A stretch of DNA of 64,000 bases from Candidatus Saccharimonadota bacterium (GTDB lineage: Bacteria > Patescibacteriota > Saccharimonadia > QS-5-54-17). Positions 8,769 through 44,876 of the stretch are shown one piece after another. Positions within the stretch are counted from its first letter, which is position 1, and every line of letters begins with the position of its first letter. The DNA lies in NCBI GenBank assembly GCA_050486185.1, contig JBJHCT010000003.1, positions 37,500 to 101,499 on the forward strand. Direction: 5' to 3'. The translations under genes and the position numbers were made by a program. The notes below the pieces were generated by a model. That model had not been told where the DNA came from. It saw only the letters and a program-made list of their open reading frames with translations, and searched no databases.

Positions 8769-9545
8769 CTACGGCTGCAACGTGCCACCGTAAACCTGCC
8801 AAGCTAGGGCTGATTTAGCTACTAGGCTTAAAACTATGTAGGTTTTCTCACCATACAGATAGTCATGCCACTTACCGACTTTTTTGTATTGTAAGATCAT
8901 ATTAATAGCAAAGCTATTAAAGAAGACAAAGATAGATCCATATATCCAGTAGACAAAGGTTGGGATTTCACCGACCCCATAACTATTTGCAATCCAGAAG
9001 TAGATAGCTATGACTATCCAAGGAACAGCTCCGGCCAATACGCCGATATTGTAACTCAACCAGTTGGTTTTAGTAGTGCTTTGGTTGTGAACTTCCATGA
9101 CTAGACCCATGAGATTCATCACGGCAGTGAGGGTAAATATCATGATTAAACTACCTAAGTCGTATATACCTACTAGCATGGCTATAGCTACTATCATGAT
9201 AGAAGCAGATAGAGAGTACTCATACCAGCGAGCCTTATTAATACCCAAGGCCAAATTAGCTTCATATTTCTGCCTATAGATAGTAGCGATTATTAGATGA
9301 GCTGTTGCTGATATAGCGAAGAAAGCAAATATCAACCAGGCTAGGGGCAAGCTAAATAGTTCCGTATTCATTAGAACCAAACTCTGAGTAGTATTATCAA
9401 AGTCTAGATAGGAGCCGTTGATAGGTAGAGCAAAGTCACTACTGAGCCAGGCTATAGCGGTTGCTTGAATGGCGTGCAGTCCAGCCATAGCCAGGTTAAA
9501 TGTTTTCAACCTCTTGAGCTTTGAGCTTATATCTTCAGGATTCAT
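8769..9545 (-). CDS. heliorhodopsin-like 7-TM retinal protein
   Basis: 258 aa. The N-terminus …LKTFNLAMAGLHAIQATAIAWLSSDFALP…, the mid-protein WYEYSLSASIMIVAIAML, and the TM7 motif YIVLSLVAKSALAWQ with a candidate Schiff-base Lys match my recollection of the heliorhodopsin (48C12/TaHeR) family. Confidence 0.65.
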   Translation of the reverse strand: MNPEDISSKLKRLKTFNLAMAGLHAIQATAIAWLSSDFALPINGSYLDFDNTTQSLVLMNTELFSLPLAWLIFAFFAISATAHLIIATIYRQKYEANLALGINKARWYEYSLSASIMIVAIAMLVGIYDLGSLIMIFTLTAVMNLMGLVMEVHNQSTTKTNWLSYNIGVLAGAVPWIVIAIYFWIANSYGVGEIPTFVYWIYGSIFVFFNSFAINMILQYKKVGKWHDYLYGEKTYIVLSLVAKSALAWQVYGGTLQP

Positions 9546-10357: not shown

Positions 10358-10666
10358 ATGCCAAGAGAAAAAAGAACTTACGCAGACCGTAGAGAAGAGC
10401 TCATAAAAGCGGTCGCTAAAAGACGAAGAAAGCTCAAAGAATTAGCCATTGAGTACAAAGGTGGTAGCTGCCAAGTGTGCGGATATGATAGATATCAAGG
10501 AGCTCTTGAGTTTCATCATCTAAACCCTAAAGAGAAGAAATTCGGCATAGCTGACAAGGGATATACCCGCTCCTGGGATGAAGTAAAAGAAGAGTTAGAT
10601 AAATGCGTTTTGGTTTGCGCTAATTGCCATAGGGAAGTTGGGTTTGGTGGTGTGAAGCTGAGTTAG
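10358..10666 (+). CDS. small HNH-family nuclease-like protein
   Basis: 102 aa, basic N-terminus. The CxxCG…EFHHLNP…CANCH pattern has the HNH/His-Me finger layout. Probable SOS-regulon member, by promoter architecture only. Confidence 0.55.
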   Translation: MPREKRTYADRREELIKAVAKRRRKLKELAIEYKGGSCQVCGYDRYQGALEFHHLNPKEKKFGIADKGYTRSWDEVKEELDKCVLVCANCHREVGFGGVKLS

Positions 10667-10722: not shown

Positions 10723-11030
10723 TCCTGGGTAGCTCAATGGTAGAGCAACTGGCTGTGAAAACGCAGCTTTCCGATCGAAAGACGGATCGAATAACGAGGT
10801 GAACTGCTGGAAGCCTAAGGCCTATTTAGCTAAGGTAATCAGCATCCAAGCCTTGCTACAAGATAGCAAGGAAGGTTCAGAGACTATCTCGCAAGAGAGT
10901 ACTCCACTTACCCTGGAGGAAGCGCCTCGCTCCCTTTTATTTTTGGGAGATGATATAGTCCACGCCCGTTGGAAACAGCGGGATAAGTGTAACCAGTAGG
11001 TTGGCGGTTCGAGTCCGCCCCCAGGAGCCA
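10723..11030 (+). tRNA. tRNA-Asn(GUU) interrupted by a group I intron (exon 1 10723-10756, exon 2 10990-11030, CCA encoded)
   Basis: Acceptor TCCTGGG/CCCAGGA, discriminator G, D-arm GCTC-AATGGTA-GAGC, anticodon stem ACTGG/CCAGT, T-arm GGCGG-TTCGAGT-CCGCC. The spliced loop is cuGUUaa, which matches the classical Asn anticodon loop CUQUUAA. Confidence 0.7.
10757..10989 (+). ncRNA. group I self-splicing intron in the tRNA-Asn anticodon loop, ~233 nt, no ORF
   Basis: P1 is exon gcugU paired to the intron guide sequence Gcagc (10763-10767), giving a U•G wobble at the 5' splice site. P7-like 5' strand ..cAGAGACUAucucg.. and 3' strand ..GAUAUAGUCCacgcc.. (compare Tetrahymena …AGAUAUAGUCGGACC). Terminal omega-G at 10989. 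Confidence 0.65.
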
Positions 11031-11994
11031 AGATTGATTTTTAGAACACTCTGCGATTACATCAAAGGGTGTTTTCAGATTAAAAACCAGCTTTTTGTCT
11101 TGAATTACGAGGTTCGAAAGCAGAAAGCGTAAAAGTTTGGATTTTAGTGCCGCTTTCGAACTTTGGAACAGTTTAGGTGCTTTTGTGGCTATCTCTAACA
11201 GATACGAACTGGTTAACATAAAACTTTTGTCATTGTGCGTTAAAGTAACCAGCTGTTCGTCTAGTTGCTCTTGTCGGGCTTTCAGGTCCTTAACATATTC
11301 GTCATAGTCATTGAGAGTAATACGCCCATCGAGCCTGTCCTCGTACAGCACACGCAGCTTTTTCTGTATTGTATCGTACTCTACACGGGTCTGCTCAATA
11401 GCGTTGGCGTAGTAAAGCTGCTGGTTATCGTGGTGCTTACGAAGCTCGTCAATTACGTATTTAACAATATCCTCGTTCATTTCAAGCTGTCCAACCATAG
11501 CAGCAACCTGCGGCACAAGGTCCTTTTCTTTGATGTGAGCCTGTTTGCACGGACCTTTGCCTTTGCTGCATTGCATATAAACGTTACCTTTGGCTGTATA
11601 AGAGGATATGCTACAACCACAGCTACCGCATTTTAATAAGCCGTTAAACGTATAGTCAGTCTTTTGCTTTTTGGTCCTGTTAGTACCACGCTGGTCATTT
11701 ACAGCCTGTACCTTATCAAACATCTTGCGGCTTATAAGCGGCTCGTATTTATGAGGGTACAGTTTGCCGTTATACCGCATAACGCCATAGTAAAACGGGT
11801 TTTTAAGTATCTGCTCAATCGTGCTTTGACCAATAGGGGTTAGTTTGGCTGTATTATTTCTTAAACCCTCTTTTTTGAGTTGTGCAGCAATGCCTCTATA
11901 AGGTGTGCCGATTAACCGCAGTTCAAATGCCTTTTTAATGTAGCCAGCTCGTTCTTGGTCTAACAGTACGGTTGTTTCTTTGTCGCTAATTCTA
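10908..11994 (-). pseudogene. large serine recombinase (integrase) fragment: recombinase domain, Zn-ribbon and coiled-coil, lacking the N-terminal catalytic resolvase domain
   Basis: Homology to serine integrases runs from …ISDKETTVLLDQERAGYIKKAFELRLIG… through the CGSCG Zn-ribbon and coiled-coil to …FDVIAECSKNQ. The first ~100 codons of the 460-aa ORF are antisense read-through of the adjacent ATPase fragment. The last ~40 codons run over the tRNA-Asn 3' exon. Confidence 0.6.
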
Positions 11995-12510
11995 TGGATT
12001 AATCTGGTGACCGACAGTGCGATGGTAATTCCCTTAGGGATGGAGCCGGGTGAGTCCGATCTGATGGAGCGACCACCGCGTAAGCCCAAAAAACCGATCC
12101 TCGGTAAAGTCGTGATTACACGTATGATCTTTATCGCCAGTATAATGGCGTTGGTGACCTTAAGTCTATTCACCTTCTTCCTGCAGTTTATGAGCGAAGA
12201 GTATGCGCGTACTATCGCTTTTAATGCCCTGGTTGTTATGCAGTGGGCCGATGCCTTTAACGCCCGTTCGCTCTGGCAGTCGATATTCATTCGTATTAAG
12301 ACGATGAATAAGTCGTTCTACGTAGGTTTGACGATTGCTGTTTCGATGCATATTTTAGCCATGTTCGGACCGATGCAAAACCCATTGTCAATCGAAAATG
12401 TCCAGCTCAATCATCTGCTCATCACGAGCCTCATCGCTATCGTGCCGATCATCATCGCCGGAGAGCTTCACAAGTTGATTATCCAGCGTATCGATCCAGA
12501 TTTCCGCTAG
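11980..12510 (+). pseudogene. C-terminal fragment (TM7-10) of a P2-type cation-transporting ATPase
   Basis: LILWINLVTDSAMVIPLGMEPGESDLMERPPRKPK… is the signature of the cation_ATPase_C region. No upstream A, P or N domains. It abuts the integrase fragment with no gap. Confidence 0.6.
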
Positions 12511-12710
12511 CAGCGGGCGCTAACTTGGGTTAGGTCGGCTGCGGCAAGCTGATCAAGCGTTAGCTGATCTACGATGACGACCGTAACTTATTAGTACGAG
12601 TTTGATGGAGCTGAATGGGGAGAGGCGGCCGATAGGTTGGACAATGATCACTGCGGTGTGGGATAATAAGCACAAGCAATCGATAAAAAATAAACAGCCT
12701 TAATACACCT

Positions 12711-14405
12711 ATGGATCTCAGTAGTCTCTTTACACAAATTAGCTTGATTGTAGCCGTCGGCGCAGTGGTTGCAACGGTGATGCGGCTGTTGCGACAACCG
12801 CTGATTATCGGCCATATCGTGACCGGAATCATCGTTGGCCCGATGTTACTAGCTATTGTTGGACCTGGCGGTGAGCTGGGCGGATTGAGTCGAATTGGCA
12901 TCGTATTACTGCTATTTATCGTCGGGCTGGAAATTAGCCTCAAAGTTTTCTCCAAGCTAGGGAGCGTAGTCTTCATAGCAGCACTGGTCCAGGTAGGGGT
13001 GGTCACAACTGTCGGAGCCACGGTGGCTACCGCTTTTGGTTTTGCTGGCGTAGAGAGCTTTATTATCGGCCTCGCCTTAGCTCTTAGCAGTACCTTGATC
13101 AGCGTGAAGTTATTCGGAGACAAGAAGGAGTTGACTCGACTGTATGCACAGATTGCGGTCGGGGTGCTGTTGCTGCAGGATATGGTGGCGACTGGTGCCA
13201 AAGTCTATCTATCTGGTTATGAAAAAAGTGGCTCTTTGATTGACATCCTTTGGTTAGGAGGCCGCGGCCTCGCCGCTTTATTAGCTCTCTACTTAACAGT
13301 CCGTTATATCTTGCCGAAATTGACTCATGCGATCGAGGATACCAAGGAGTTGCTTTTGTTATTCTCCCTGGGGTGGGGGTTGGGGGTGGCGACGCTGTTC
13401 GATATGGTCGGCTTTTCGATAGAAATCGGAGCCTTGCTGGCTGGAGTTAGTCTGGCCTCAGTGCCGTATGTGCACGAGATGGCATCACGGCTCAAGCCGC
13501 TACGCGACTTCTTCATTGTGCTGTTTTTCATCTCGATTGGCAGCACATTACTGCCGGGACAGTTGACGCAAGCGCTGCTGCCAGCAGCAATCTTTACGGT
13601 GCTCGTCTTACTCTTGAAGCCACTGGTGATTTTAATGTGTATGGGGCTACTTGGTTATGCCAAACGGACAAGTTTTAAAACAGCCGTTTCACTGGCCCAG
13701 GTGAGCGAGTTTTCATTAGTCTTAATCGTAGGGGCGCTAAGTGCCGGATTAATCAGTGCCGAAGTCCAGGCTATTATTACGGTAGTGGCACTTGTTACCT
13801 TCGCCGGCTCTACCTACATGATGAAGTATGACAACCAACTCTATAAGATGCTGGAACCACACTTGCGGCTATTTGAACGCAAAACCACTCGGTTAGAGCA
13901 ACCTGCTAGCCTTAGCCATTACCCGGCAGTGCTGTTCGGTTACCGCAAGGGCGGGATGGAGTTTATTCGGACATTTAAGAGCATGGGTAAGCGGTTTGTA
14001 GTGGTAGATTACGACCCAGAAGCTATCGAGCTACTCGAGCGCCAGCAGGTAAACTTGATTTTTGGCGATGCCACCGACCCAGAACTACTGGAAGAGCTAG
14101 GCCTAAACCAAAGCAAGGTCATAGTTTCAACCATTTCTGACCTCAAAACTAACGAGTTTTTAGCCCAGTGGTTGCACATCAATAATCCAGCAGCTGTCTT
14201 TGTCTGTTCGGCCGATAATGCGGCTCAGGCCAGCGCCCTCTATGAGCTGGGGGCTGCGTATGTGATGATGCCGCACTTTATCGGCTCGGAAAAAATCGGC
14301 AGTTTTATGAAGCGTAATGGACTCAAGAAGTCGGAGTTCCATAAATTTCGCCAACGCCACTTGCAGTATCTAGAGACACATTATGCCTTCGAATCAAACA
14401 GCTAA
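12711..14405 (+). CDS. Kef-type monovalent cation:proton antiporter (CPA2) with C-terminal RCK/TrkA-N domain
   Basis: 564 aa. About 12 TM helices of a Na+/H+-exchanger fold, followed by a Rossmann RCK domain (…RFVVVDYDPEAIELL…FGDATDPELLEE…). Confidence 0.8.
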   Translation: MDLSSLFTQISLIVAVGAVVATVMRLLRQPLIIGHIVTGIIVGPMLLAIVGPGGELGGLSRIGIVLLLFIVGLEISLKVFSKLGSVVFIAALVQVGVVTTVGATVATAFGFAGVESFIIGLALALSSTLISVKLFGDKKELTRLYAQIAVGVLLLQDMVATGAKVYLSGYEKSGSLIDILWLGGRGLAALLALYLTVRYILPKLTHAIEDTKELLLLFSLGWGLGVATLFDMVGFSIEIGALLAGVSLASVPYVHEMASRLKPLRDFFIVLFFISIGSTLLPGQLTQALLPAAIFTVLVLLLKPLVILMCMGLLGYAKRTSFKTAVSLAQVSEFSLVLIVGALSAGLISAEVQAIITVVALVTFAGSTYMMKYDNQLYKMLEPHLRLFERKTTRLEQPASLSHYPAVLFGYRKGGMEFIRTFKSMGKRFVVVDYDPEAIELLERQQVNLIFGDATDPELLEELGLNQSKVIVSTISDLKTNEFLAQWLHINNPAAVFVCSADNAAQASALYELGAAYVMMPHFIGSEKIGSFMKRNGLKKSEFHKFRQRHLQYLETHYAFESNS

Positions 14406-15523: not shown

Positions 15524-15599
15524 GGGGCAGTAGTTTAACAGGTAAAATTTACGGTTTGGCATCGTAAGATACGGGTTCGAGTCCCGTCTCGCTCCACCA
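15524..15599 (+). tRNA. tRNA-like gene (Pro/UGG-like anticodon loop) with a mismatched acceptor stem; probable pseudo-tRNA or integration-site remnant
   Basis: D-arm GTTT-AACAGGTA-AAAT, anticodon arm TACGG-tttggca-TCGTA and T-arm ACGGG-TTCGAGT-CCCGT are all well formed, and CCA follows. The 5' acceptor GGGGCAG pairs only 5 of 7 with the 3' strand CTCGCTC. Confidence 0.35.
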
Positions 15600-15656: not shown

Positions 15657-15811
15657 TATGCACATTGTAGCATAGCGCAGATGGTTTATGCACCGCTTTT
15701 CGCGGACGCACGCATAGCTATTGCCAAAATTAAGGAGTTAAAAGTACAGTGACAACAGAGGTAAGTATATCCTTGACAACAAGTATACTAAAAGATATAC
15801 TTATAAGTACG

Positions 15812-16660
15812 ATGAGATACACGATAACCCAATTCAACAAAGACTTTCCAAACGATGATGTATGTCTTGATACTATTTTTGAGAATCGCTACGGCGATGT
15901 CAAAGACTGCCCGAAGTGTGGCGTAGTCGACACGAAGTTCTACCGTGTCAAAGGGCGCAAGTGCTACGCCTGTATGCACTGTGGCTATCAACTGCATCCT
16001 TTAGCCGACACTATCTTTCATAAGTCAGCTACACCACTTAAAAGTTGGTTTTATGCAATATATCTATTTTCAGTATCGAAGAATGGCGTATCAGCTAAAG
16101 AGCTAGAGCGACACTTAGGAGTAACTTACAAGACTGCACACCGCATGGCAGCACAAATCCGCAAACTCATGAAAGACAATGAAGATCCGCTCAGTGGCGA
16201 AGTAGAAGTAGACGAAACCTATATTGGTGGTCGCCGTAAACTAGCACAGAAATTTGATAATAAAAGCGTAGTATTCGGTATGGTAGAACGGGACGGATTT
16301 GCGAAGACTAAACATGTTATTAGCTCTGGTAGCCGCGTTCTACTGCCAGTGATCGTTAAAGGGGTAGCGCCAAAGTCTAGTATCCACAGTGACGAGTGGA
16401 GAGCATACAAAACACTTTCAAGACGAGGCTACACTCACACCACAGTCAATCACTCTAAATTAGAGTACGTACGCGGTGCAACTCACACCAACACCATAGA
16501 GGGCTATTGGAGCCAACTAAAACGTTCTATCGACGGGACTTACCACTCTGTTTCGCCGAAGTATTTACAGGCTTACCTTGACGAGTTTTCTTTTCGTTAT
16601 AACTTGAGGGGTTCAGCTGTTTATCCTGTTCTTTTGGGACGGGCGTCGACGCCTTTTTAA
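15812..16660 (+). mobile_element. IS1595-family (ISXO2-like) DDE transposase gene
   Basis: N-terminal Zn-ribbon CPKCG…CYACMHCG and the hallmark …EVEVDETYIGG… of the IS1595/ISXO2 transposase domain. The internal Met at 15812 is chosen as start. Terminal inverted repeats could not be convincingly identified by eye. Confidence 0.7.
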
Positions 16661-17023: not shown

Positions 17024-17161
17024 AAAACCTTGTGAAAAATAGTCGTCTAGACTCTCGTTGTTCTTTTCGTTGAGCGATAGCTCTAGCCCCTACTACTAAG
17101 AGCCAATCTTAAGTTTCCATACTATAAAAAATTCTAAACAAACCTTGATATAATCAAAACT

Positions 17162-25263: not shown

Positions 25264-27306
25264 ATGTTTGAGCACAGTCGCTCTGATGAGATAAACCACC
25301 ATAAACACGATGATCATGATAATCATGATGAACACGACAAGCATGCCCATCACTCGGTAGCCATGTTTCGTAGTAAGTTTTGGTTATCACTTGTCTTAAC
25401 CGTGCCGGTGTTGATTTACTCTGAAATGATTCAGGCATGGCTAAGCTTTTCTCCGCCAGCATTTACCGGTTCTGAATATATTCCGGCATTACTTGCCAGC
25501 GTAATCTTCTTTTACGGCGGGCTAGTCTTTATTAAAGGCGCTATTTCGGAAATAAAGAGTCGCTCTCCGGGCATGATGAGCTTAATCGCTCTGGCTATTA
25601 TCACAGCCTATAGCTACTCTTTAGCCACCCTCTTTATTATTGATGGTGAGAGTTTCTTCTGGGAGCTAGCTACTTTAATTACCATCATGCTCTTGGGTCA
25701 CTGGTTAGAAATGGCCGCTATATCCAAAGCCGAAGGTGCGTTAGAAGCTATATCTAAACTACTGCCTGATATGGCTGAAAAGTTAATTCCAGGCCAACAA
25801 CATCCAGAAAAAGTAGCGGTTTCTCAGCTGGTCAAGGGTGATTTAGTCTTAGTTCGACCGGGTAGCAGTGTACCGGTGGATGGAGTAGTTAAAGAAGGAG
25901 ATTCTTCAGTTGATGAAGCTATCATAACGGGCGAATCTAAACCGGTGGCCAAATCGGTAGGTGATAACGTCATTGCCGGTAGTATCAATCAAGATGGATC
26001 ACTAACGATCGAAGTCAAAGAAGTAGGTGAGAGTACGGCCCTAGCTGGAATTATGAGGTTGGTTTTAGAGGCCCAAAAGTCCAAATCAAAATCTCAAGTA
26101 TTAGCCGATAAGGCAGCACTTCTACTAACGATTGTAGCTGTAGTATCGGGACTAGTTACTTTAGGTGTTTGGTGGTTGCTAGGTGATATTAACTTTGCTG
26201 TAGCTCGAGCCGTGACAGTAATAATTATTGCCTGTCCCCATGCTTTAGGACTAGCTATACCTCTAGTAGTCTCGATATCTACTACTCTATCGGCCCAAAA
26301 CGGTCTGTTGATTCGCAAACGACCAAGTCTGGAGGCAGCTCGCAATATAGATGTAGTGTTGTTTGATAAGACGGGCACATTAACTCGTGGTGAACATGGA
26401 GTGAGTGATATCTGGACTGTAGATGGATTGGGCGAGGAAGAAGTGCTTAAAATCGCGGCTTCACTAGAGCAAAACAGTGAGCATATCATAGGCCGAGGCA
26501 TAGTGGCTGCAGCTAAGGATAGAGATATCAAGCTGGATAAGGTAGATGAGTTTAAGGCATTAGCTGGTGCGGGAGTTGAGGGTGCTATATCAGGTGAAAA
26601 CTTTAGGGCCGTATCAAGAAGATATATCGAAGAAAATGGTTTAGTAGCACCTAAAGAGATATCAAGCCAGGCACTAACAGCAGCTAAAGAGGGTAAAACT
26701 GAAGTCTATTTACTCAACCAAGACGACAAAGTTCTTGGACTCATAGCTTTAGCTGATATGGTGCGAGAAGAGTCTAAGCAGACTATTGAAGATCTGCGGA
26801 CCTTAGGCATTAAAACAGCTATGATTACTGGTGATTCTAAAGAAGTAGCTGCTTACGTATCGAAAAGCTTAGGTATAGATCAATACTTTGCTGAAGTTAA
26901 ACCAGAGGATAAGGTGGCTAAAGTTAAAAGCCTGCAGGTTGATGGCAGTAAGGTAGCTATGGTAGGAGATGGGGTGAACGATGCGCCAGCTCTAATGCAA
27001 GCAGATATCGGTATAGCTATAGGTGCTGGTACCGATGTAGCTATTAAATCGGCCGACATTATTTTAGTTAAAAACAACCCTCTAGATGTCATCAAAGTCA
27101 TCAACCTCTCAAAAGCTGCTTATCGGAAAATGGTACAGAATCTAATTTGGGCTAGCGGGTATAACGTATTAGCTATACCGCTAGCTGCTGGTGCGGCTAT
27201 TAGTTTTGGTATAGTTTTATCACCAGCTGTGGGTGCAGTATTGATGTCACTTTCTACAATTATTGTGGCCTTAAACGCCCAACTATTGAGGGGTCAGAAA
27301 CTTTAA
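25264..27306 (+). CDS. P1B-type heavy-metal ATPase with His-rich N-terminus and CPH transmembrane motif (CopB-like)
   Basis: 680 aa. His/Asp-rich N-terminal tail. TM6 motif IIACPHALGLAIP. DKTGTLT phosphorylation site. GDGVNDAPAL hinge. Confidence 0.85.
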   Translation: MFEHSRSDEINHHKHDDHDNHDEHDKHAHHSVAMFRSKFWLSLVLTVPVLIYSEMIQAWLSFSPPAFTGSEYIPALLASVIFFYGGLVFIKGAISEIKSRSPGMMSLIALAIITAYSYSLATLFIIDGESFFWELATLITIMLLGHWLEMAAISKAEGALEAISKLLPDMAEKLIPGQQHPEKVAVSQLVKGDLVLVRPGSSVPVDGVVKEGDSSVDEAIITGESKPVAKSVGDNVIAGSINQDGSLTIEVKEVGESTALAGIMRLVLEAQKSKSKSQVLADKAALLLTIVAVVSGLVTLGVWWLLGDINFAVARAVTVIIIACPHALGLAIPLVVSISTTLSAQNGLLIRKRPSLEAARNIDVVLFDKTGTLTRGEHGVSDIWTVDGLGEEEVLKIAASLEQNSEHIIGRGIVAAAKDRDIKLDKVDEFKALAGAGVEGAISGENFRAVSRRYIEENGLVAPKEISSQALTAAKEGKTEVYLLNQDDKVLGLIALADMVREESKQTIEDLRTLGIKTAMITGDSKEVAAYVSKSLGIDQYFAEVKPEDKVAKVKSLQVDGSKVAMVGDGVNDAPALMQADIGIAIGAGTDVAIKSADIILVKNNPLDVIKVINLSKAAYRKMVQNLIWASGYNVLAIPLAAGAAISFGIVLSPAVGAVLMSLSTIIVALNAQLLRGQKL

Positions 27307-39484: not shown

Positions 39485-41320
39485 CTACCGCTTCTTTTGC
39501 CGCTTATTTTTCTCTAGCTCTCGTTTTCTCAAACGAAGTGACTCAGGCGTGATTTCTAGTAGTTCGTCATCTTCTAGGAAGTCGATAGCTTGCTCTAAAC
39601 TCAATATAGTTGCAGGTGTTAACTGTACGGTACCGTCACTACTTTTTGAGCGCATATTAGTAAGCTGTTTTTCCTTGGTTACGTTTATCTCAATATCCTC
39701 ATTGCGGGAGTTAAGACCGATTATCTGTCCACCATATACTTTAGCTCCAGGCTCTATGAACACGGTTCCTCTAGCCTCGGCGTTTTGTAGAGCGTAAGGT
39801 GTCGCTACGCCGTTTTCCCAAGCAATCATTACGCCGTTACGCTGCTGACCCAAGGTAGCCCCAAGGGGCTCATAGCCGCTCATCAGGCTGTTCATAGTGA
39901 TAGTGCCTTTGGTTTCGGTCATAAGGATTGTGCGCATACCTAAAAGAGTTCTGGTAGGCATCTGGTAGACCAGCTTGGTAATATTGCCATCCATCGGCAC
40001 CTGTTCGATTAACTGGGCTTTGCGTTTACCAAATTCCGATTGAATCGTACCGGTAAACTCATTTGGAACTTCAACCGTAATCTCCTCATAAGGCTCAAGT
40101 TTCTGGCCATTCTCTTCGATAACTACCACTTCTGGCCGACCGACCTCTAATTCAAAGCCTTCGCGCCGCATCGTCTCTATGAGAACACTTAAATGCAGTT
40201 CTCCTCGACCTTTTATAACGTAGCCTATACCTTCAGGCTCGACTTCTAAGCCTATATTGGTTTCCAGTTCCTTATTTAGGCGCTCACCGATTTGACGGGA
40301 GGTGGTTAAATCACCTTCCTTGCCTTTATAGGGGGAGGTATTCGGTCCTAGGTACATACTTAATGTGGGCGGTTCGAGCTTTATTTCCGGCAAAGCTTCC
40401 GGATTCTTCTTATCTGTAATAGTCTGGGATATCTTGATATCACCAAGACCAGTGACGGCTACTATTTCACCGGCCGAAGCAGAATCTACTTCGCGTCTAC
40501 CCAAGCCTTCATATATAAACAACTTGTCGATTTTGCCACTAGAGATGGTTTCAGCGCTAGTTATAGCTACAGCTTGGGATTTCTCAACCATGCCACGATG
40601 AACCCTACCGATAGCGTATTTACCAAGGTAGCTATCCCAGTCTAGCGCAGTGACCAGGATTTGCAGTCCGCCATCTTCCTCTACTTGAGGGGCGGGAACT
40701 TCAGATAGAATGGCGCTAAAGACCGGTTCAAGATCGGCGTCAGAATCAAGATTATCCGGAGGGGAGTTCCAGGCCTTGCCGATTCTACCAACTGCATAAA
40801 TGGTGATGTAATCGAGCTGATCTTCATTTGTAGCTAGTTCTAGAAAGAGATCAGATATAGCGTCCTCAACCTTTTGTAGGTTTGCATCGGATTTGTCGAT
40901 CTTATTTATAACTACAATCGGTTTAAGCCCGCTTTCGAAGGCTTTCTTCAGTACAAACTTGGTTTGTGGCATCGGGCCTTCTTGGGCATCTACTACTAAC
41001 AGACAGCCGTCTGCCATATTCAATGTTCTCTCAACTTCACCGCCAAAGTCCGCATGACCAGGGGTGTCTATGATGTTTATCTTATAGCCCTGGTATTTAA
41101 CGGCTGTAATCTTGGCAGTAATAGTGATTCCACGTTCTTTCTCTTGGTCACCGGAGTCCATGATCAACTCCTGCTCCATCTCACTCTGATGAGAGCTAAA
41201 GGTTTCGGTCTGTTTCAATAGGCCATCGATCAAGGTAGTTTTACCGTGATCTACGTGGGCGATAATTGCGATGTTGCGAATTTGGTCACTAGACATACTC
41301 AAGCGATTATACACTCTCAC
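39485..41320 (-). CDS. typA: translational GTPase TypA/BipA
   Basis: 611 aa. G1 motif AHVDHGKTTL, with EF-G-like domains II, III and V. Confidence 0.9.
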   Translation of the reverse strand: MRVYNRLSMSSDQIRNIAIIAHVDHGKTTLIDGLLKQTETFSSHQSEMEQELIMDSGDQEKERGITITAKITAVKYQGYKINIIDTPGHADFGGEVERTLNMADGCLLVVDAQEGPMPQTKFVLKKAFESGLKPIVVINKIDKSDANLQKVEDAISDLFLELATNEDQLDYITIYAVGRIGKAWNSPPDNLDSDADLEPVFSAILSEVPAPQVEEDGGLQILVTALDWDSYLGKYAIGRVHRGMVEKSQAVAITSAETISSGKIDKLFIYEGLGRREVDSASAGEIVAVTGLGDIKISQTITDKKNPEALPEIKLEPPTLSMYLGPNTSPYKGKEGDLTTSRQIGERLNKELETNIGLEVEPEGIGYVIKGRGELHLSVLIETMRREGFELEVGRPEVVVIEENGQKLEPYEEITVEVPNEFTGTIQSEFGKRKAQLIEQVPMDGNITKLVYQMPTRTLLGMRTILMTETKGTITMNSLMSGYEPLGATLGQQRNGVMIAWENGVATPYALQNAEARGTVFIEPGAKVYGGQIIGLNSRNEDIEINVTKEKQLTNMRSKSSDGTVQLTPATILSLEQAIDFLEDDELLEITPESLRLRKRELEKNKRQKKR

Positions 41321-43493: not shown

Positions 43494-44876
43494 TTGGTTA
43501 CAATAAAGCTTATATTTATGGACAGAATTAAAAAAATACTTATAAATATCTTAGAGCCAATATTTGGGGTGTTTACTAAACTAAAGAAAACTTCAGGGCT
43601 ATGGCTAACGATCATTATCATAGCTATTCCGTCATTTGCCTGGGTAATCGGCTATGACTTTAGCGGTATGTCCGGTTTGGAGATAGCTGGCACTATCCTC
43701 AAAAGAGGAGCGGCATTTGCCGGTATGGCCATGTTTGCCTGGACGTTGATACTAAGCGGTAGGTACAAAATTTTAGATGGTCTATTTAACGGCCTAGATC
43801 AAACCTATATAGCTCACCGTTTCCTAGGTACCACTGTGATGGCGCTTTTAATCCTGCACCCCTTTGGCTACACACTGCTTCATATAGCAGCCCAAGGTGC
43901 TACAGGGTTAACCCAACATTTCCTAGGCTTTGAAAGTATAGCTTTGACTATGGGTAGATTGTCGCTATATGGCCTGATTTTGCTTGGTATTTGGTCAGTC
44001 TTTGCGAAAGTCAAACATGAAACCTTCATCAAGGTGCACTTGTGGCTAGGGGTATTGTTTGTAGCAGGAGCCGCACATGCGTTTATGTCAGGACCGGAAT
44101 CAGTGCTAGCTAATAACGCCTTTATGTTTTGGTATATGTTAATTTTATCAACTACTGCGACACTAACATTCTTGCACTACTCGATCTTTGGTGACTTCTT
44201 GCATCCATACTATAAATACAAGGTTGCGTCTGTAAATGTATTACCAGGTGATGTTGTCGATATAGAGCTTACACCGAAGTATAGGATAGTGAACTTTAAG
44301 CCAGGACAGTTCTTTTATGTAGCTTTTGATCAGATGGGGGAGGATAGGTACCATCCATACTCGGTAGCTTCGAGTAAGGATAGTTCTAAAATGCGCTTCT
44401 TGGTTAAAAAGCTAGGTGATTACACCAACCAGCTTGATGAGCTATCTGTTGGAACCGTTGCTAGATTAAAGGGTCCTTACGGAGGGTTTACCTTTGATGA
44501 TGATAAGCATGCCAAGCAGCTATGGCTAGCTGGAGGTATAGGTGTGACGCCTTTTTTGAGCAAGGCTCACAGTCTAAGGTTTTCTCAGCTTCATCCAGAG
44601 GTAAAGATGTTCCACTTTGCTAAAGATAAACAAGAGGCGATCGATAGGGAGGTGTTAAACATCATCCAAAAAGACCACAAGGCCTTTGACTATAAGTGTA
44701 TACCGGAGGATAAGTTTGGTATTGTTTCGCTCAAAGATATTTCCAAACAGCTAGGTTCATTGAAAGATTATGCTATCTATCTGTGTGGCCCTCCTGCTAT
44801 GCTCAAGGCTTATGATGAACAGGCTAAAGAGTTAAATATAGAAAAACAGCTACATTACGAAGAGTTTAGCTACTAA
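43494..44876 (+). CDS. NOX/ferric-reductase-like membrane flavocytochrome (bis-heme TM domain plus FAD/NAD(P)-binding domain)
   Basis: Two His pairs spaced 13-14 residues apart in TM helices (HRFLGTTVMALLILH and HLWLGVLFVAGAAH). FAD site KPGQFFYVAF…HPYS and NAD site LAGGIGVTPF. Confidence 0.7.
   Translation: MVTIKLIFMDRIKKILINILEPIFGVFTKLKKTSGLWLTIIIIAIPSFAWVIGYDFSGMSGLEIAGTILKRGAAFAGMAMFAWTLILSGRYKILDGLFNGLDQTYIAHRFLGTTVMALLILHPFGYTLLHIAAQGATGLTQHFLGFESIALTMGRLSLYGLILLGIWSVFAKVKHETFIKVHLWLGVLFVAGAAHAFMSGPESVLANNAFMFWYMLILSTTATLTFLHYSIFGDFLHPYYKYKVASVNVLPGDVVDIELTPKYRIVNFKPGQFFYVAFDQMGEDRYHPYSVASSKDSSKMRFLVKKLGDYTNQLDELSVGTVARLKGPYGGFTFDDDKHAKQLWLAGGIGVTPFLSKAHSLRFSQLHPEVKMFHFAKDKQEAIDREVLNIIQKDHKAFDYKCIPEDKFGIVSLKDISKQLGSLKDYAIYLCGPPAMLKAYDEQAKELNIEKQLHYEEFSY

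Follow-up and report, generated by a model that had tools for sequence, protein, structure and literature searches.

tRNA genes are typical targets of tyrosine integrases. In this work, we describe a locus of a Saccharibacteria genome at which a large serine recombinase (integrase) gene, broken off within its coding sequence, adjoins a tRNA-Asn gene on one side and a truncated P-type ATPase gene on the other. The locus lies in a stretch of 64,000 nt of contig JBJHCT010000003.1 (assembly GCA_050486185.1), which we call the window and whose first nucleotide is position 1. Several described systems are close to what we find. The integrative and conjugative elements of actinomycetes (AICEs) are 9-24 kb long, integrate at tRNA 3' ends, stack in tandem, form replicating circles and carry rolling-circle modules (PMC2440964); the single serine-integrase example in that review sits in thiC, not in a tRNA gene. 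In the archaeal 'suicidal' integrases of the Sulfolobus spindle-shaped virus (SSV) type, attP lies in the integrase open reading frame (ORF), integration splits the gene, and the attachment (att) sequence is translated (PMC7253208). In rolling-circle plasmids, abrupt junctions, at which identity vanishes from one nucleotide pair to the next, are anchored at the nick site, and no origin hairpin is required (PMC5703833; PMC5037232).

The locus compares with these systems as the remnant of a small integrative element. We estimate a probability of roughly three in four that an element inserted at the 3' end of tRNA-Asn and that a single microhomology event, most simply a deletion, then left the present scar. 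The scar itself, which is an ordinary and recent one, matters little; its value is as a pointer to the element family from which it derives. The features on which the argument rests are as follows, with the strand in parentheses.

10723-11030 (+): tRNA-Asn(GUU) gene, consisting of exon 1 (10723-10756), a group I intron (10757-10989) and exon 2 including CCA (10990-11030)
10908-11027 (-): read-through tail of the integrase ORF, non-homologous, antisense over the intron's 3' end and exon 2 of the tRNA
11024-11030 (+): att core, GGAGCCA here and TGGCTCC when read on the integrase strand, where the host tRNA gives way to the element
11028-11996 (-): remaining part of the integrase, a large serine recombinase, covering residues 165-487, with recombinase domain, zinc ribbon and putative coiled coil; catalytic domain gone
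11310-11333 (-): invariant site, CTCGATGGGCGT and ATTACTCTCAAT on either side of the break point, on the integrase strand; putative rolling-circle nick site
11989-11997: junction microhomology ATTCTATGG, from a three-way alignment; crossover within 11993-11997
11986-12510 (+): C-terminal fragment of a P2-type cation ATPase, M6-M10, about 175 residues; A, P and N domains absent

The integrase fragment is part of a minus-strand ORF of 460 amino acids (10908-12290) with an ATG start. The ORF matches the Pfam domain Recombinase over the full profile (PF07508, residues 113-201, E=4.4e-16) and, following it, Zn_ribbon_recom (PF13408, E=3.3e-6); the stretch from the Cys cluster to the integrase C-terminus looks helical by eye. 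Pfam detects no catalytic Resolvase domain (PF00239, containing the nucleophilic serine) in this ORF, and the domain is found in P0002-P0014 and most other homologs. In particular, a database search yields full-length, Resolvase-bearing homologs with 96% (P0002, 515 amino acids), 94% (P0003) and 89% (P0004) amino acid identity. At the DNA level, homology with intact integrase genes extends from 11996-12003 down to 11024-11000, with 83-88% nucleotide identity across about 975-1,000 nt (87.9% with the intact gene P0002/L002). Given this identity and the small Pfam E-values, chance similarity is no concern. The homology starts at residue 165 of P0002; codons 1-164, and with them the region of the catalytic serine, are therefore missing. 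This agrees with the first-pass annotation of the window, made from the sequence alone, which had placed the abrupt start of serine-integrase homology, without a catalytic resolvase domain, at about 11994. Judged by its domains, the window copy is a fragment of a large serine recombinase and not a functional member of the family.

Both ends of the 460-residue ORF are foreign to the integrase. The first 98 residues are antisense ATPase sequence, and the tail (WLLGADSNRQPTGYTY... up to the stop codon) has no counterpart in the homologs; the tail differs in every integrated copy. The sequence in between contains no stop or frameshift. Its dN/dS (the ratio of nonsynonymous to synonymous substitution rates) against the nearest intact gene is 0.029, and its lineage-specific changes (22 synonymous to 5 nonsynonymous) are like those of intact copies (24:8 and 17:4). 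As the fragment shows no decay, the truncation is recent in comparison with the divergence among the sampled copies. The first-pass term 'decayed' thus goes too far.

The second truncated gene is represented by a plus-strand ORF of 176 amino acids (11980-12510), whose only match is to Cation_ATPase_C (PF00689, E=3.2e-39, positions 9-175 of the 175 in the profile). It carries the motifs LWINLVTD and PGESDLMERPPR, and the DKTGT motif is absent. Since LWINLVTD is the M6 motif of SERCA-type pumps, the fragment comprises M6-M10; the earlier description was accurate as to the start of P-type ATPase homology at about 11985 without A, P or N domains, but not as to the label 'TM7-10'. The fragment is 76% identical in amino acids to residues 630-803 of an uninterrupted 803-residue ORF (L007:8141-10552) located on a 706-kb Saccharibacteria contig, and the homology begins at ILWINLVTD, that is, at window position 11989 and residue 630 of 803. 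The L007 ORF, which carries both DKTGTLT and TGDGVND, supplies an uninterrupted counterpart of the kind that the first-pass annotation had proposed to look for in related genomes. Note that L007 is a distant relative, with 70% nucleotide identity in the ATPase. When residues 1-629 of this protein are used as a query, no similarity is found anywhere in the 64-kb window, and no promoter-like site is seen upstream of the ATPase fragment on its own strand. A distant P-type ATPase paralog of 680 amino acids is encoded elsewhere in the window (25264-27306).

As a separate possibility, the best match of the fragment, P0121 (183 amino acids), suggested a conserved family of stand-alone proteins consisting of the ATPase C-terminal domain. 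This candidate was ruled out: the L007 frame is open over 803 residues with all motifs, and L008-L010 are cut by contig ends. The short 'C-terminal domain only' proteins among the matches are accordingly artefacts of gene calling or of contig ends. The 803-residue frame of L007 is itself represented in the protein collection only by a 183-residue C-terminal call, and about 50 residues expected at its N-terminus appear to be either lost or in another frame; this copy, too, may therefore be damaged. The NCBI record of the window annotates both of its fragments as ordinary proteins, P0001 (421 amino acids), which starts within the sequence antisense to the ATPase fragment, and P0122 (106 amino acids); a pseudogene flag would probably be right for both. 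No record was returned when P0001, P0122 and the 176-residue ORF were looked up, and a scan of IMG/VR with the integrase fragment gave no match.

The two homologies meet at a junction that can be resolved almost to the nucleotide by aligning the window with the integrase homologs L002, L004 and L005 and with the L007 ATPase. The microhomology reads ATTCTATGG in the window, ATTCTGTGG in the integrase homologs and ATTTTGTGG in the ATPase homolog; in the longer alignment, the window sequence GCTAATTCTATGGATTAATCTGG is compared with GCTAATTCTGTGGTT... (integrase homologs, reverse complement) and ...CAGATTTTGTGGATTAACCTGG (ATPase homolog). The C at 11992 is specific to the integrase and the A at 11998 is specific to the ATPase, which places the crossover inside TGTGG (TATGG in the window) at 11993-11997. 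The shared stretch can be described either as 5 nt of perfect identity or as a 9-nt microhomology with one mismatch. Because both homologies meet within a short microhomology, the usual signature of illegitimate recombination, the alignment supports the formation of the junction in a single event of this type. The two truncated genes overlapping by a few nucleotides, from which the first-pass annotation had concluded a single junction, are thus confirmed. The same annotation had named an assembly error at about 11990 as what would refute it; such an error is unlikely, since the Logan contig L061 (run SRR31311414) is 100% identical to the window across 10728-12592, including the junction.

On the other side of the fragment, the boundary with the tRNA gene is defined by comparison with related loci. 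Intact relatives of the integrase (89-96% amino acid identity) are located in elements of 6.6-8.2 kb that have a 7-nt repeat, TGGCTCC, at their boundaries; this heptamer is the tRNA-Asn 3' end, GGAGCCA, in reverse complement. All the integrase genes share the terminal sequence ...AATCAA(T/A)CT TGGCTCC and diverge beyond it. The opposite end of the element, TGGCTCC followed by GTCTAGT(T/G)GAAAC..., is found in L002, L004, L005/L006, L047, L053 and L055, and it continues as TGGCTCC GTCTAGTGGAAAC...; in all of these except L004, TGGCTCC is seen on both flanks. Across 17,895 nt on the right side of the left TGGCTCC, the loci L005 and L006 share 99.98% identity; on its left side they are unrelated. 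In the window, identity with the L002 element stops exactly at 11024-11030, and the integrase coding sequence ends inside the GGAGCCA of tRNA-Asn.

Adjacency of the integrase gene and tRNA-Asn is seen in at least seven other loci, counting intact and truncated genes. In L045, L046, L048 and L049 an intact integrase gene abuts a complete tRNA-Asn gene, and in L055-L057 a truncated copy does. L011 has an intron-bearing tRNA-Asn followed by the integrase, as in the window, and this contig ends inside the integrase gene. In L004, L005/L006, L047, L050, L053 and L058, additional DNA with the same kind of boundary precedes the tRNA, which is found 0.2-3.7 kb further away; this points to a tandem stacking of elements at tRNA-Asn. 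Serial TGGCTC(C/A) junctions are observed near tRNA-Asn in L005 (1440-3640), L047, L050 and L053, some of them preceded by a conserved hairpin CCAGTAGCGTGAATGCTTACTGG, and they indicate stacked islands or their remnants. Taken together, these comparisons strongly support the 3' end of tRNA-Asn as the probable attachment site, as the first-pass annotation had suspected, and the left junction in the window (11024-11030) is intact and precise. The att core appears as a 7-nt repeat, without long arm repeats.

The gene containing this attachment site is a tRNA-Asn gene interrupted by an intron, as already recognised in the first-pass annotation. Rfam detects a group I intron at 10746-10982 (RF00028, 69.3 bits). 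ARAGORN does not call the unspliced tRNA-Asn in the window, and when 10756 is joined to 10990, it reports a canonical 75-nt tRNA-Asn(GUU) whose 3' end, with CCA, is at 11030. The gene is homologous to the intron-less tRNA-Asn genes of L004 and L005. The intron splits the anticodon between nucleotides 35 and 36; it is also present in L011 and L052 and absent from the 15 other tRNA-Asn genes recovered in relatives.

The first-pass annotation had also remarked that the integrase frame runs across the 3' exon of tRNA-Asn, and the relatives provide an explanation. When the right and left ends of an element are joined, as in an excised form, the integrase frame is extended by 39-40 codons. The resulting tail, LVETLRT..EDYEF.DLAATV..YEP.LA.SF..L, is conserved and acidic. 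It is encoded by the left ends at L002:3251-3370, L004:164-, L005:3637-, L047:858-, L053:7853- and L055:4292-; in these six left ends, the stop is at the same codon, and the similarity between clades ends at the stop. Substitutions in the tail within clades, given as synonymous to nonsynonymous, are 8:0, 9:3 and 11.5:2.5, corresponding to a ratio of nonsynonymous to synonymous polymorphism (pN/pS) of 0-0.1, and the tail is under purifying selection. In addition, contiguous proteins of 527-532 amino acids that include the tail exist in the database. In this family, attP is therefore predicted to lie inside the integrase ORF, which would account both for the frame that runs into the tRNA in the window and for the unrelated tails of integrated copies. 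If this holds, the 39-40 residues of the tail would be encoded by the excised circle alone, and a random tail would take their place on integration. The integrase would then exist in two isoforms, depending on the state of the element, and these could play a part in directionality control. Full-text searches covering serine integrases, mobile elements of Saccharibacteria and rolling-circle replicons gave no description of attP within the ORF of a serine integrase.

From these data, we propose the following history. An integrative element of 6.6-8.2 kb, belonging to a family of Saccharibacteria and the candidate phyla radiation (CPR), would have inserted at the tRNA-Asn 3' end by a crossover within GGAGCCA, with its integrase gene facing the tRNA and the frame of this gene running across the att junction. 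To the right of the element, a divergently oriented ATPase gene would have been present. One illegitimate-recombination event at the microhomology would then have joined integrase codon 165 to ATPase codon ~630. In its simplest form, this event would be a deletion of at least 8 kb, which removed 0.5 kb of the integrase gene, about 6-7.7 kb of the element including the distal att site, any spacer in between and about 1.9 kb of the ATPase gene. Observed directly are both truncations, their microhomology, the presence of the junction in two assemblies, the att arrangement of the relatives and the lack of further element parts in the window; the deletion as the type of event, its size and the earlier position of the ATPase gene are what we infer. 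Since both the nucleophile domain and the distal att site are gone, the remnant is not expected to recombine or move; likewise, without the A, P and N domains the ATPase fragment is not expected to pump. The remnant would thus be an immobile scar.

Several points weigh against this history. The state before the event was not found among the relatives, the only close host relative, L011, ending inside the integrase gene. The search for reciprocal products covered the 64 kb of the window within a 105-kb contig. L061 is a separate assembly, but it may share reads with the metagenome-assembled genome from which the window is derived. In L007 the ATPase gene is followed directly by a cation/proton exchanger gene, with no integrase, but the exchangers of L007 and of the window (a Kef-type antiporter gene located next to the ATPase fragment) are only 23% identical, so the gene order is common at the family level only. 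Finally, the ATPase fragment and the Kef gene are the sole outliers of the window in G+C content at third codon positions (GC3), and may thus have come from outside instead of being native chromosome. The GC3 of the ATPase fragment is 0.585 over the full stop-to-stop frame and 0.61 over 11980-12510, and for Kef it is 0.57, compared with a mean of 0.38 and a standard deviation of 0.06 for the 49 window ORFs of at least 180 amino acids; the integrase fragment is host-like (0.44), and the IS1595-family transposase gene further downstream and its neighbours are typical.

The last point leads to a different reading, in which a defective element variant carried the ATPase fragment and Kef as cargo, or both belong to an older island stacked at this tRNA; the junction would then have formed within mobile DNA, and the island would reach further to the right, as suggested in the first-pass annotation. 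Besides the two GC3 outliers among 49 ORFs, it can draw on the tandem islands that are common at tRNA-Asn (L005, L047, L050, L053), on cargo regions that differ between elements and on the IS1595 transposase nearby. However, the window contains neither the left-end sequence GTCTAGTNGAAAC... nor the coding tail nor a second tRNA-like repeat; a GAGCCA at 17100 occurs at chance frequency and has mismatched flanks, and the gene adjacent to the integrase in intact elements is always a replication gene of 363 amino acids. We therefore consider this reading unlikely. Somewhat less likely again is an inversion or translocation, which would leave the 5' parts of both genes, along with the remainder of the element, elsewhere in the genome. 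Only part of the genome was covered by the search for such reciprocal parts, and the upstream neighbour of the L007 ATPase is a ferric reductase gene whose homolog in the window is 31 kb off, at 43494-44876 in the opposite orientation, so the region is rearranged relative to L007. On the other hand, L007 is distant enough that differences in gene order need not concern the event, and no N-terminal ATPase part, integrase 5' part or other element gene is found within the 64-kb window. An inversion placing the ATPase 5' part near the ferric reductase at 43.5 kb was also considered and rejected, as neither the neighbouring ORF (39485-41320) nor the rest of the window has similarity to L007 residues 1-629.

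Retention of the fragments for a function, either as a dead att-binding integrase that blocks further insertions or as a stand-alone ATPase C-terminal membrane protein, would fit the intact 460-residue ORF with its ATG start and low dN/dS, as well as the annotation of both fragments as proteins (P0001, P0122). However, a very recent truncation would give an equally low dN/dS, the N-terminal 98 residues of the ORF are antisense to the ATPase, the ATPase fragment lacks a promoter-like site upstream on its own strand, and the short integrase remnants L056-L058 carry frameshifts, indicating that such remnants decay; we regard this explanation as very improbable. Least credible of all is an assembly chimera in which unrelated contigs were mis-joined at about 11990. 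The source is indeed a metagenome-assembled genome, mobile elements are classic break points of assemblies, and the L011 contig ends in the same gene. Against this, the junction shares only 5-9 nt, k-mer sizes used by assemblers are far above this length, and the Logan contig from SRR31311414 spans 10728-12592 at 100% identity. The preferred history, insertion at tRNA-Asn followed by one microhomology event, thus stands as the best account of the locus.

A separate matter is how far this history extends beyond the junction: the junction and its att context are established, and the DNA on its right side may be either native chromosome or an older island. The features downstream are as follows.

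12711-14405 (+): Kef-type cation/proton antiporter gene (Na_H_Exchanger and TrkA_N, Pfam), intact; GC3 0.57
15524-15595: tRNA-Pro(UGG), 43.9 bits, low for a tRNA; two acceptor positions mispaired
15749-16660: IS1595-family transposase gene (Pfam), about 150 nt downstream of tRNA-Pro

The first-pass annotation had regarded 10.7-17.1 kb as one eroded genomic island and had proposed that att repeats matching the tRNA-Asn 3' end might be present further downstream. The 22-nt tRNA 3' end, allowing up to 3 mismatches, occurs as a single copy in the window without a distal repeat, and no other element part (the left end GTCTAGTNGAAAC..., the coding tail or other element genes, including the 363-residue replication gene) is found in the 64 kb. 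As candidate distal att sites, we considered the GAGCCA hexamers at 13015, 16510, 17100 and 19138, which occur at chance frequency; the one at 17100 has only TAGTAGT in common with the left end of one clade, and the window integrase belongs to the other clade. The island is thus not established. The suggested check of composition gave a mixed answer: the block of the ATPase fragment and Kef (11997-14405) deviates, which suggests a foreign origin from its GC3, but the integrase fragment and the IS1595 region are typical. In favour of a larger foreign region are these outliers, the stacking hot spot at tRNA-Asn in relatives and the nearby IS1595; opposed to it are the missing distal boundary signal and, weakly because of the 23% exchanger identity, the ATPase-exchanger pair of L007 without an integrase. 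The IS1595 gene is 3.7 kb away from the junction and is not implicated in it, and only weak inverted repeats are seen around it, so that its ends are not definable.

The comparison of relatives also reveals a second kind of truncation in this family. Ten metagenome loci (L050-L059) retain no more of the integrase gene than its final ~300 nt, and all of them are joined to unrelated DNA at one nucleotide, between ...GGGCGT and ATTACTCTCA..., corresponding to the position between 11321 and 11322 in the window; position -2 of this break point is G in 9 of the 10 loci, and the left sides of the junctions have a GGNG(T/A) bias. The break point falls within the invariant site. In the integrase gene, synonymous conservation is highest at this site and at the presumed P arm of attP. 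L053:7853-10343 and L055:4292-7269 are complete mini-elements of 2.5-3.0 kb with TGGCTCC at both ends and neither an integrase nor a replication gene, and presumably rely on functions provided in trans. The left end points of L053 and L054 fall at different positions in one and the same gene. By analogy with rolling-circle replicons, a nick site inside the integrase gene probably anchors these deletions. We infer a candidate nick sequence, GATGGGCGTATTACTCTCAAT, with cleavage proposed between GT and AT on the integrase-sense strand; prediction of hairpins at the invariant site gives none (z-scores of +1.4 and +0.1). Aberrant termination at such a site would produce minicircles bearing attP, which could be integrated by Int in trans. 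An alternative, that the break point is a pseudo-att site of the integrase, is ranked below the nick-site model: the resemblance to half-sites (ATTAC..., ACTCT) is weak by eye, and the spacing is unlike that of attP. Note that the junction in the window (11993-11997) is not at this recurrent break point.

The intact elements are organised around a conserved module that consists of a gene for an Xis-like HTH_17 protein, a gene of 403-428 amino acids, two small genes, a SpoVG-like gene, the 363-residue gene and the integrase gene; variable cargo is located at the left of this module. The intact integrases are about 490-530 amino acids long with Resolvase, Recombinase and Zn_ribbon_recom domains. 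The 363-residue gene probably encodes a rolling-circle initiator, as suggested by its homologs: proteins 45-49% identical to it pass the Pfam cut-off of PF05144 (Phage_CRI/G2P) with 24-31 bits against 21.7, the protein has a weak match to phrog_702 ('replication protein'), and its residues H161, H163 and Y172 are invariant in 38 sequences. Its AlphaFold2 model (pLDDT 89) resembles only unnamed viral proteins, with no match in PDB, and no relative of the protein is present among 50,697 phage and 72,556 plasmid records. No FtsK/TraB or other transfer domain is recognised in the element proteins tested.

A circular form is observed for one relative. Five Logan contigs of 8,742-8,763 nt (L062-L066, from runs SRR31757423, SRR31757425, SRR31757426, SRR31757429 and SRR31757430) are circular permutations of one another that match at 100% identity, and four of the five have terminal overlaps of 29-30 nt, giving a circle of 8,733 bp. 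This is not the window element but a relative with 79% integrase identity, and its att core is TGGCGGGGG instead of TGGCTCC, so that a different target is probable. By sequence, the integrase has no detectable PDB chain, and its identity to any phage record is at most 32%. The nearest phage-record integrases (29-32% identity) are those of MT836653.1 (9,264 nt) and MT837677.1 (6,409 nt), unannotated 'Bacteriophage sp.' sequences from human faeces that are sized like these elements and that may represent such episomes catalogued as phages.

To our knowledge, few mobile elements of Saccharibacteria have been characterised; our literature searches returned work on phages and on CRISPR without any comparable element, and the family is apparently undescribed in the literature and reference collections searched. 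Whether the scar is the footprint of an apparently undescribed family of small episomes of Saccharibacteria/CPR that combines a tRNA-Asn-targeting serine integrase, attP within the integrase ORF and an in-gene nick site spawning mini-elements is, as a joint claim, evenly balanced in our judgement. Saccharibacteria are hard to manipulate genetically. A family with an observed circle, a putative initiator, a 7-nt att core and mini-derivatives would be a plausible basis for vectors or integration tools in CPR bacteria.

As for the surroundings, the host belongs to Saccharimonadales (Saccharibacteria, CPR), as indicated by related LexA loci and the name of the best ATPase match, and its closest relative is L011 (LexA 88% identical). 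A free-standing HNH endonuclease gene (10358-10666), which may be a mobile homing-type gene, is located between lexA and the intron-bearing tRNA-Asn; it is missing in L011, where lexA is directly followed by the tRNA, and present in L012. A heliorhodopsin gene (8769-9545, Pfam E=3e-96) adjoins lexA, and this order is kept in L011.

In comparison with known systems, the ATPase fragment represents the C-terminal membrane domain of P2-type ATPases without the A, P and N domains and DKTGT, the L007 homolog having DKTGTLT. The integrase family resembles phage-type serine integrases (phiC31, Bxb1, A118 and TP901-1 Int) in its domain architecture and apparently short att cores; it differs from them in that its target is a tRNA 3' end and attP appears to lie in its own ORF, and the window copy lacks the catalytic domain. 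The elements are similar to AICEs of the pSAM2 type in their small size (6.6-8.7 kb here), insertion at tRNA 3' ends, stacking, circles and a probable rolling-circle module. However, AICEs have a tyrosine integrase, a RepSA-type initiator and an FtsK-like TraB, whereas the elements described here have a serine recombinase and a G2P/Phage_CRI-like initiator, with no transfer gene recognised, and their hosts are Saccharibacteria/CPR.

The mini-elements have a likeness to pC194-family plasmids and qacC, in that ten relatives break at one point beside an invariant site, and miniphages of f1/M13 show a parallel pattern of deletions anchored at the nick site. Unlike in rolling-circle replicons, the putative nick site here lies inside the coding part of the integrase gene, and integrated mini-elements with both att arms result; this mechanism is not that of the junction in the window. 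The nearest parallel to attP within the ORF is provided by the SSV-type integrases. There, a tyrosine recombinase is split into two inactive halves, whereas here a serine recombinase would exchange its last 39-40 residues for a random tail, which offers a testable idea of how a serine integrase might sense whether its element is integrated or excised.

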